The position numbers were made by a program, and so were the translations under genes. Positions 48,969 to 49,548 of a stretch of DNA of 64,000 nucleotides are shown here, one piece after another (positions within the stretch are counted from its first letter, which is position 1; each line of letters opens with the position of its first letter). The DNA lies in NCBI RefSeq assembly GCF_046105845.1, contig NZ_CP151004.1. The stretch is one strand, 5' to 3'. The notes beneath the pieces are model-generated. The model worked only from the letters and a program-made list of their open reading frames with translations. It searched no databases and was not told the DNA's origin. The DNA comes from Escherichia coli (GTDB taxonomy: Bacteria; Pseudomonadota; Gammaproteobacteria; Enterobacterales; Enterobacteriaceae).

Positions 48969-49548
48969 TCTTATCATATAAATAACTACGAAAAATCCCC
49001 CGCAGTCTCAGCTTACCGCAGTGGAGACAGCGGAAGAATGCCCAAACCTGCACCACTACAGATCAATAAAATCTGAATAAACAACTTATTAGATAAATAG
49101 TAGGGGATTCGCAGCGATAAGAAGCATGGGCATACCGTGGCATGTTGGTATAGGCGCATCTGGCAATCATCCCAGTCATACATAGTTACCGGGCTGATAA
49201 ACTTTCTCCCTGAAATATTGCCACACAAACTCACCTCGAAACTCTCCCCAGTGCAATGCAAATATATTATTTCATTTGGATTATTTTACTTTTAATGTAG
49301 TGCCCCGCTATAAAAACATTTTTATTATTCCTTTCATTTATATCGCTGCCTGCACAGAGAATGGAAAAGAAAACAAAAACCAGGGTAAAAGCCCTATATC
49401 GAAACATAAAAAATGAGCGATTTTTTACAGTATTCATAGGTGGTTTAGTCATAATCGTAGCAAACCAACACCCAAGTATGCTTTTTTAAGACAAATCGGC
49501 AATGTGTTGTGCTCGGGCGAATAAATATTGTGTTCAGGAGAAATGATT

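Follow-up and report, generated by a model that had tools for sequence, protein, structure and literature searches.

Positions 48969-49400 of the E. coli DNA stretch analysed here (64,000 nucleotides, hereafter the window) are probably a non-coding scar where two versions of the phoU-yieH interval, deeply diverged from one another, have been joined. The version designated 'b' has the order phoU(b)-bglGFBH-yieL-yieK-hairpin-cbrC-cbrB-yieH(b), and the version designated 'z' has the order phoU(z)-REP-hairpin-cbrC relic-espY5-espX3-espY4-yieH(z). In the window, relics of both follow one another: yieK, the hairpin of b type, a b-type cbrC tail, an 88-nt orphan segment, an adeP-like piece on the plus strand, the spacer and hairpin of a z-type phoU, a probable z-type cbrC tail and espY5 (Table 1). 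The GC content falls from ~49% to ~30% between 49.0 and 49.6 kb and rises again at 56.3 kb.

Table 1. Features at and around the junction of the two haplotypes, in window coordinates.
Feature	Coordinates	Strand	Remarks
phoU	40031-40756		window ORF
bglB	43907-45301		intact 464-codon frame in the window
bglH	45387-47003		window ORF
yieL	46997-48199		window ORF
yieK	48214-48930	+	glucosamine-6-phosphate deaminase family; ORF and RefSeq annotation of a matching genome
yieK/cbrC hairpin	48937-48966	both	common to bgl-type genomes
cbrC(b) 3' relic	48986-49037	-	last 17 codons including stop (CTA at 48986-48988 on the plus strand); frameshifted
82-aa ORF	49013-49261	-	TTG start; not a gene
Orphan filler	49038-49125	none	88 nt; no source found
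adeP-like (adenine permease) relic	49126-49158	+	33 nt, equivalent to adeP nt 315-347
Right half of REP-like element, ancestral phoU-downstream spacer	49155-49165		start of homology with Z-only ('type III') genomes
Ancestral phoU terminator hairpin (predicted)	49166-49198		stem arms 49166-49176 and 49188-49198
Second, Z-linked ('z') cbrC 3' relic (probable)	49199-49260 (end approximate)	-	heavily decayed; GC 47%
AT-rich espY5 upstream region	49261-49548	+	32.6% GC
61-aa ORF	49267-49452	-	not a gene
Small hairpin	49380-49395		in espY5 upstream region
25-nt block	49412-49436		common with espY4 upstream region
Ribosome-binding site AGGAGA	49536-49541		7 nt before ATG at 49549
espY5	49528/49549-52032		~830-aa ORF
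espX3	52503-53690	-	395-aa ORF
espY4	53978/53996-56404		~800-aa ORF
yieH	56541-57206	-	window ORF
adeP	57373-58710		window ORF

Three arrangements of the locus are found in E. coli. In the bgl type, e.g. in E. coli W, yieK and its hairpin are followed by cbrC, cbrB and yieH, which are convergent with yieK. In the Z-only type, represented by O157:H7 Sakai, MS 21-1 and strain 1190, espY5-espX3-espY4 directly follow phoU, and bgl, yieL, yieK, cbrC and cbrB are missing. The window is of a hybrid type, in which the bgl genes through yieK precede the Z cluster. The region studied is 100% identical to E. coli SCU-102, where RefSeq names the three AT-rich genes type III effector protein, pentapeptide-repeat protein and espY4; in Sakai the same three genes are espY5, espX3 and espY4. 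They correspond to the Z5211-Z5214 'ORFan' cluster in the part of the survey by Sankar et al. 2009 consulted here (PMC2646131), and Z5214 has been equated with espY5' (PMC4048457). The same part of the survey distinguishes phoU-yieH locus types Ia, Ib, II, III, IV and V and assigns 174 strains to bgl (135), Z (33) or neither (6); it describes the islands as alternatives, with no strain having both. The window shares with these types the chromosomal site and the two gene sets, its left part being of bgl type and its right part of type III. It departs from the mutual exclusion of bgl and Z reported in those sections in having both in tandem, with cbrC cut to 52 nt and cbrB absent. It is not of type III, as bglG-bglH, yieL and yieK separate phoU from the Z cluster, nor of type I or II, as espY5, espX3 and espY4 stand in place of the cbrC 5' part and cbrB, and yieH is the Z-linked allele. 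Finally, phoU and yieH are treated as flanking core genes in the consulted text, whereas in the window the diverged haplotypes include the 3' end of phoU and most of yieH.

Among 5426 complete E. coli genomes, bglH-yieK is present in 4286, the left arm of the Z cluster in 1100 and the hybrid junction in 15, with identical breakpoints in all 15. The same junction was also found in one metagenome contig by a 20-mer scan of metagenome contigs. No complete genome matches the whole window exactly; the closest relatives are 19KM1831 for bglH-yieK (99.9%) and SCU-102, 19KM1776 and 7CC for the junction (100%). The bglB gene is annotated as frameshifted in SCU-102 and PCN033 and is intact in the window, which is therefore not identical to those genomes. 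A fimbrial (lpf-like) operon at 30643-36070, between glmS and pstS, constitutes another polymorphic site in the window: strain 1190 lacks it, and its identity to the lpf-O113 operon of E. coli W reaches only 78-95%.

On the left side of the scar, yieK (97.9% identical to its counterpart in E. coli W) is the last intact gene of the bgl-type haplotype. The hairpin after it folds with -18.8 kcal/mol (z -4.6 on the plus strand and -3.8 on the minus strand) and is 100% identical to E. coli W over 34 of 37 nt. It is predicted to be a bidirectional terminator between the convergent yieK and cbrC, and presumably terminates yieK today. Its stem is G+C-rich, as in an intrinsic terminator, but the T tract is weak (GUUCUUAUCAU), and a consensus terminator scan made no plus-strand call there. 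A second hairpin is located after phoU in Z-only strains. A 15-nt direct repeat at 48970 and 49085 was judged to be due to chance.

The original prediction was that this segment may hold remains of one or more genes displaced by the island. This proved correct for cbrC (yieJ), encoding a colicin E2 tolerance protein (PF03691/UPF0167). A BLASTN match to E. coli W covers 48800-49037 (90%, E 2e-97): it begins within yieK, crosses the hairpin and ends in the 3' part of cbrC, at 49037. The cbrC relic lies in its native place beside the yieK terminator, and its DNA is 94.3% identical to that of W cbrC. A TBLASTN search with CbrC residues 180-194 gave 13/15 identities (E 9e-7), with FRCLHCGKLRL encoded at 49003-49035, while the final GDFS* of CbrC is in another frame owing to a 1-nt deletion near 48997. 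The relic retains 17 of 195 codons (9% of the gene), so that only 52 of the 432 nt of the region are cbrC of the bgl-type backbone. The 44-aa ORF holding these codons has no Pfam match, and in place of an intact frame of ~195 aa there is a frameshifted pseudogene relic which cannot function. In PapM-32-1 the base missing from the window is retained, yet the relic contains a stop; thus it decays independently in sister genomes. For cbrB the prediction did not hold: no CbrB remnant was found in 48.9-49.6 kb, where the best TBLASTN hit had 8/15 identities and E 0.21 in a tiny search space, or anywhere in 49000-56560.

On the right side, homology with Sakai, MS 21-1 and strain 1190 starts at 49155. 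The equivalent position in Z-only genomes is located in the right half of a REP-like palindrome directly after the phoU stop codon. The sequence GTAGGTCAGATAAGGCTTTTACGCCGCATCTGGCA of Z-only strains appears to resemble the REP consensus; of this element the window keeps only the right half, and this copy had no match in Rfam. The next feature is the hairpin that in Z-only strains follows phoU. In strain 1190 it is intact, with -26.8 kcal/mol (z -4.6), whereas the window copy carries two substitutions in the stem and reaches -9.1 kcal/mol (z +0.7). In the hybrids the relocated phoU hairpin has lost stem pairs; with two mismatches in its stem and no gene upstream whose transcription it could end, the window copy differs from an intrinsic terminator.

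In order to place these relics, the locus was compared with two outgroups. One, encoding a CbrC 79% identical to that of E. coli, has the order phoU, hairpin, cbrC, yieH, adeP, and its core genes are 84-86% identical to those of E. coli; the order phoU-cbrC-yieH is that of type V, reported for E. albertii in the consulted part of Sankar et al. (PMC2646131). The other, a metagenome contig, carries phoU, an ADP-ribosylglycohydrolase gene, cbrC, a gene for a yieL-like esterase, yieH and adeP, indicating that the phoU-yieH interval is variable in other enterobacteria too. The sequence after phoU in type III genomes aligned with the outgroup phoU-cbrC spacer and hairpin with a score of 54 versus a null of 23.7 +/- 2.9; the hairpin part matched at 21/25 positions (hand count), and the alignment runs on into the region of the cbrC stop. 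On this basis, 49155-49198 of the window represents the former spacer and terminator downstream of phoU, and the segment from 49199 to ~49260 is probably a second and very decayed cbrC tail. When 49200-49300 was aligned alone with the outgroup, the score was a weak 28 versus a null of 21.1 +/- 3.0 (p ~0.04); a clear cbrC 5' relic further within the island, at 52291-52395, supports this reading.

The outgroups also bear on the end of phoU. The last ~55 nt of the gene (~40700-40756) are far more diverged between the bgl- and Z-linked alleles than the rest of it. In both outgroups PhoU ends in DPKE, as in Z-only strains (..GKDPKE*), while the bgl-linked protein ends in ..EKDSDK*. The identity of phoU nt 651-726 to the outgroups is 71-82% for the b allele and 83-87% for the z allele, the b-type end being the more diverged. 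Judged by these comparisons, the z-type phoU 3' end with its hairpin is the ancestral state, and since the outgroups share the Z-linked ending, the left border of the bgl haplotype lies inside phoU. When PhoU(z) was looked up to find outgroup contexts, all loci obtained were those of Z-only E. coli.

The 117 nt that separate the two homologies (49038-49154) are confined to the 15 hybrid genomes and the one metagenome contig of the same context. The filler is 96-100% identical across all 15 hybrids, and its GC content is 41.0%, compared with 55.8% for the cbrC relic and 47.2% for 49155-49260. Searches with the filler gave two weak Pseudoalteromonas matches among plasmids (E 0.008 and 0.03), taken as chance, no match among phages and none in a 20-mer scan of GTDB species representatives. 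Copying from elsewhere in the window was rejected, as the best short match was no better than shuffles; the phoU 3' end/REP, cbrC, cbrB and the phoU-bglG spacer were likewise rejected as sources, with local alignment scores at or below the shuffle means. The folding of the filler is no better than that of shuffles (z -0.6 and -0.3), and the identity to adeP drops to chance directly left of 49126.

From that position the sequence resembles an internal part of adeP. In PE164-type sister genomes, where the junction reads GGCGCAATCTTCTGGCTCGCATCTGGCAATCA, the adeP-like relic spans 47 nt (adeP nt 315-362), and that of the window is shorter by a 15-nt deletion between the short direct repeats GCGCA/TCGCA. 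Local alignment of the PE164 filler with the adeP gene of the window gave a score of 62 versus a shuffle null of 21.4 +/- 2.6 (z 15.7), with 39/47 identical positions, and the window version of the relic scored 43 (z 8.8). The relic translates as MGIPWHVGIGAIFW, which is identical to AdeP (MGLPWQVGMGAIFW) at 11/14 residues, the other 3 being conservative changes. The same 33 nt were matched independently by BLASTN in adeP of E. coli W and of the outgroup, and adeQ fits worse (score 50). The relic is 17% diverged from every adeP allele seen and the adjacent cbrC relic 6%, a difference that is not significant (Fisher p = 0.11); the sequence could thus come from a foreign adeP rather than from an E. 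coli donor. Divergent adeP alleles of E. coli fit no better as a source (39/47), and a doubled 40-aa query made from the adeP-like peptide found no protein sharing three 5-mers. Among the 5426 genomes, adeP 5' is single-copy in essentially all, and neither a second copy of it nor a less-deleted intermediate was detected.

The proposal that the insertion breakpoint lies in this region holds in part. Homology with E. coli W does end at 49037, but 49037/49038 is not the point of a simple island insertion into a K-12-like backbone, because the orphan, the adeP-like piece and backbone relics of Z type lie to the right of it. AT-rich foreign DNA proper begins only at ~49261. The predicted backbone-like composition likewise applies up to ~49260 and fails beyond, where the DNA is island-like, and the 48969-49400 segment as a whole has an intermediate GC content of 39.6%. 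Nor does it align in full to intergenic backbone present in all strains.

The DNA from 49261 on appears to be the control region of espY5 (29.8% GC), unchanged from Z-only strains; 49261-49548 are 91-100% identical across island-bearing genomes. Two elements are common to the regions upstream of espY5 and espY4 (49380-49436 and 53826-53882): a small hairpin, CCAGGGTnAAnnCCCT, and a 25-nt block, AATGAGC(G/T)ATTTTTTACAGTATTCA, identical at 24/25 positions. They are located ~115-170 nt before the start codons and may represent a candidate common promoter or regulator site. The espY5 gene itself is very variable, with nucleotide identities of 76% to PE164, PapM-32-1 and MS 21-1, 91% to Sakai and 95% to strain 1190, against 91-100% for its flanks, and hybrid genomes with the identical junction carry different espY5 alleles.

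Further relics are located within the Z cluster. The spacer between espY5 and espX3 contains, on the minus strand, the above-mentioned cbrC 5' relic, which corresponds to CbrC residues 12-46 with 54% amino acid identity and an internal stop (DNA identity 80-82%, E 5e-14), and yieH-like relics are found at ~52170-52275. Downstream of espY5, the segment ~52090-52215 is paralogous to the one downstream of espY4 (56460-56560) and runs into the yieH 3' end. An espY module thus underwent segmental duplication inside an old backbone of the order phoU-cbrC-yieH. The yieH gene of the window is 97% identical to that of Z-island genomes and 79.8% (nucleotides) or 85% (amino acids) identical to that of E. 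coli W. High identity to bgl-type genomes resumes only at ~57150, inside the yieH 5' end, so the diverged haplotype extends past the apparent right end of the island.

The order of relics may be explained by an import of bgl-type DNA into a Z-type chromosome. A chromosome of the Z-only type would have taken up b-type DNA extending from pst/phoU to about nt 362 of adeP, the direction of transfer being the one suggested by the evidence given below. The left crossover would have been homologous, in pst-phoU; on the right, adeP would have been joined illegitimately to the right half of the REP-like element, with which it shares the microhomology GCGCA..TCTGG. This would have placed bgl...cbrC-cbrB-yieH(b)-adeP' ahead of the old phoU terminator and the Z genes. 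A later deletion would have removed the redundant block from the cbrC 5' part through cbrB and yieH(b) to the adeP' 5' part, leaving 52 nt of cbrC, the 88-nt filler and ~47 nt of adeP'. The order of the relics, cbrC on the minus strand and then adeP on the plus strand, agrees with the b-type gene order cbrC-cbrB-yieH-adeP.

Several observations favour import into a Z-type chromosome. As the Z-only phoU 3' end is ancestral, the Z-only junction cannot have come from the hybrid by simple deletion. The hybrid still contains the phoU terminator, displaced from its gene and decaying, its loss of stem pairs pointing to relaxed constraint. For both the pst-phoU flank (98.7%) and the left arm of the island (99.5%), the closest genomes outside the hybrid group are the same Z-only strains, the 1190 group. 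Moreover, PCN033, one of the hybrid genomes, belongs to phylogroup D (PMC4578781), and the consulted part of the 2009 survey places Z-only loci in phylogroup D and in ABD hybrid strains (PMC2646131).

The hybrid genomes differ from each other by ~3% in bgl-yieK and by up to 24% in espY5. The identical breakpoints and the 96-100% identical filler, found despite these allele differences, argue for a single origin of the junction, and the differences themselves indicate that it is old or was spread by recombination. Every non-hybrid bgl locus differs by at least 2.2% from the bgl segment of the window group, which implies either an unsampled donor or an old event.

The proposed join resembles homology-facilitated illegitimate recombination, which was reportedly described for natural transformation by de Vries and Wackernagel in 2002, in that one end lies in conserved homology (pst-phoU) and the other is an unrelated join with a microhomology of a few bases and filler at the junction. 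It differs in that the process is read here from the scar alone and in that a filler of 88 nt is long for it. E. coli is not classically naturally transformable, and conjugation or transduction would have supplied the DNA. The import model leaves the 88-nt orphan unexplained.

The orphan has a place in a rather unlikely alternative, according to which the hybrid is the original entry state of the island and the Z-only genomes arose later. A foreign Z fragment, from the REP half to yieH(z) and nt 1-362 of adeP(z), either linear or circularised, would have integrated into a bgl-type chromosome, the filler and the adeP-like piece being donor DNA. A circle closed at adeP362/REP, with one crossover near the yieH/adeP 5' end and a partial deletion, would give the same order of relics. 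The outgroup adeP and the adeP-like relic are equally distant from E. coli adeP (83%); yieH(z) is 20% diverged from yieH(b), so one of the haplotypes is probably xenologous; and the bgl alleles of the hybrids form an old, separate lineage. However, the phoU 3' end of Z-only genomes is the ancestral one, and their phoU-REP-hairpin junction is intact and agrees with the outgroups, a state that deletion cannot regenerate from the hybrid. In the hybrids the phoU terminator hairpin is displaced from its gene and decaying. The hybrids also make up only 15 of the 1100 island carriers, and no EspY5 relative was found in 100,044 species representatives by an exact-peptide seed method, blind to distant relatives, so there is no known donor. 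It is quite unlikely that the hybrid is a preserved intermediate in the assembly of the phoU-yieH hotspot, with the 88-nt orphan and the 17%-diverged adeP piece as the only surviving bits of the foreign donor of the espY/espX cluster and yieH(z). If this were true, the scar would offer a sequence tag by which the source of an 'ORFan' effector family, found in ~20% of E. coli, could be traced.

A function of the 48969-49400 segment itself, as a small protein, a small RNA or a lineage-specific regulatory element, is very improbable. The two minus-strand ORFs noted originally, of 82 and 61 aa, do exist, although they are not the only ones, since plus-strand ORFs of 42-52 aa are present too, and the minus strand has terminator-like hairpins and a promoter-like site at 49295-49266. 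This site is the only one found, against 2.5 expected by chance. The 82-aa ORF is a chimera that runs through the Z-type relics, the filler and, out of frame, the cbrC relic; type III genomes have no more than its first 35 codons, and in PapM-32-1 it is interrupted by a stop. In MS 21-1 and the metagenome contig the 61-aa frame is shifted and broken by 4-5 stops, and in PE164 and PapM-32-1 its C-terminus is altered. Four ORFs (of 82, 61, 44 and 52 aa) were compared with Pfam and the 48969-49400 sequence with Rfam, with no match at E<=1 in either case, and there is no excess folding. Insertions in the island arm right of the filler are tolerated: in PCN033 the arm is split by IS1 together with a resistance module (TEM-1, aac(3)-IId, IS26, ISCfr1; 9305-18156 of the PCN033 locus), and B20105 carries an IS1 there as well. 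The segment thus contains no credible gene, RNA family or structured element, in agreement with the original description of ~430 bp without a convincing gene and of two featureless ORFs, whose frames proved not to be conserved in sister genomes. The DNA of 48986-49260 seems to be debris with no detectable function. The probability that the junction is an assembly or chimera artefact is negligible. The same breakpoints recur independently in 15 complete genomes from differing hosts, countries and laboratories and in a metagenome contig, and the carriers show lineage-specific substitutions and the 15-nt indel.

The island, the polymorphism of the locus and its genes were already known, and the hybrid is present in public genomes; no description of the hybrid arrangement, or of the relics inside and beside the Z cluster, was found in the parts of the literature consulted. 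In kind the scar is ordinary, a recombination scar with pseudogene fragments, which reveals no new mechanism or function and is mildly informative on the history of the E. coli genome. An annotation of the interval from yieK to espY5 should contain a cbrC pseudogene fragment and nothing else. The islands bgl and Z5211-5214 (espY/espX) are not allelic alternatives in the strict sense, as a rare lineage carries both, with breakpoints that are now fixed to the base. The Z cluster sits within a decayed phoU-cbrC-yieH backbone with cbrC and yieH relics of its own, so that the borders of the island are redrawn and the diverged haplotypes span the phoU 3' end to the yieH 5' end; and the Z-type phoU end, ancestral by comparison with the outgroups, gives a direction to part of the history of this locus.
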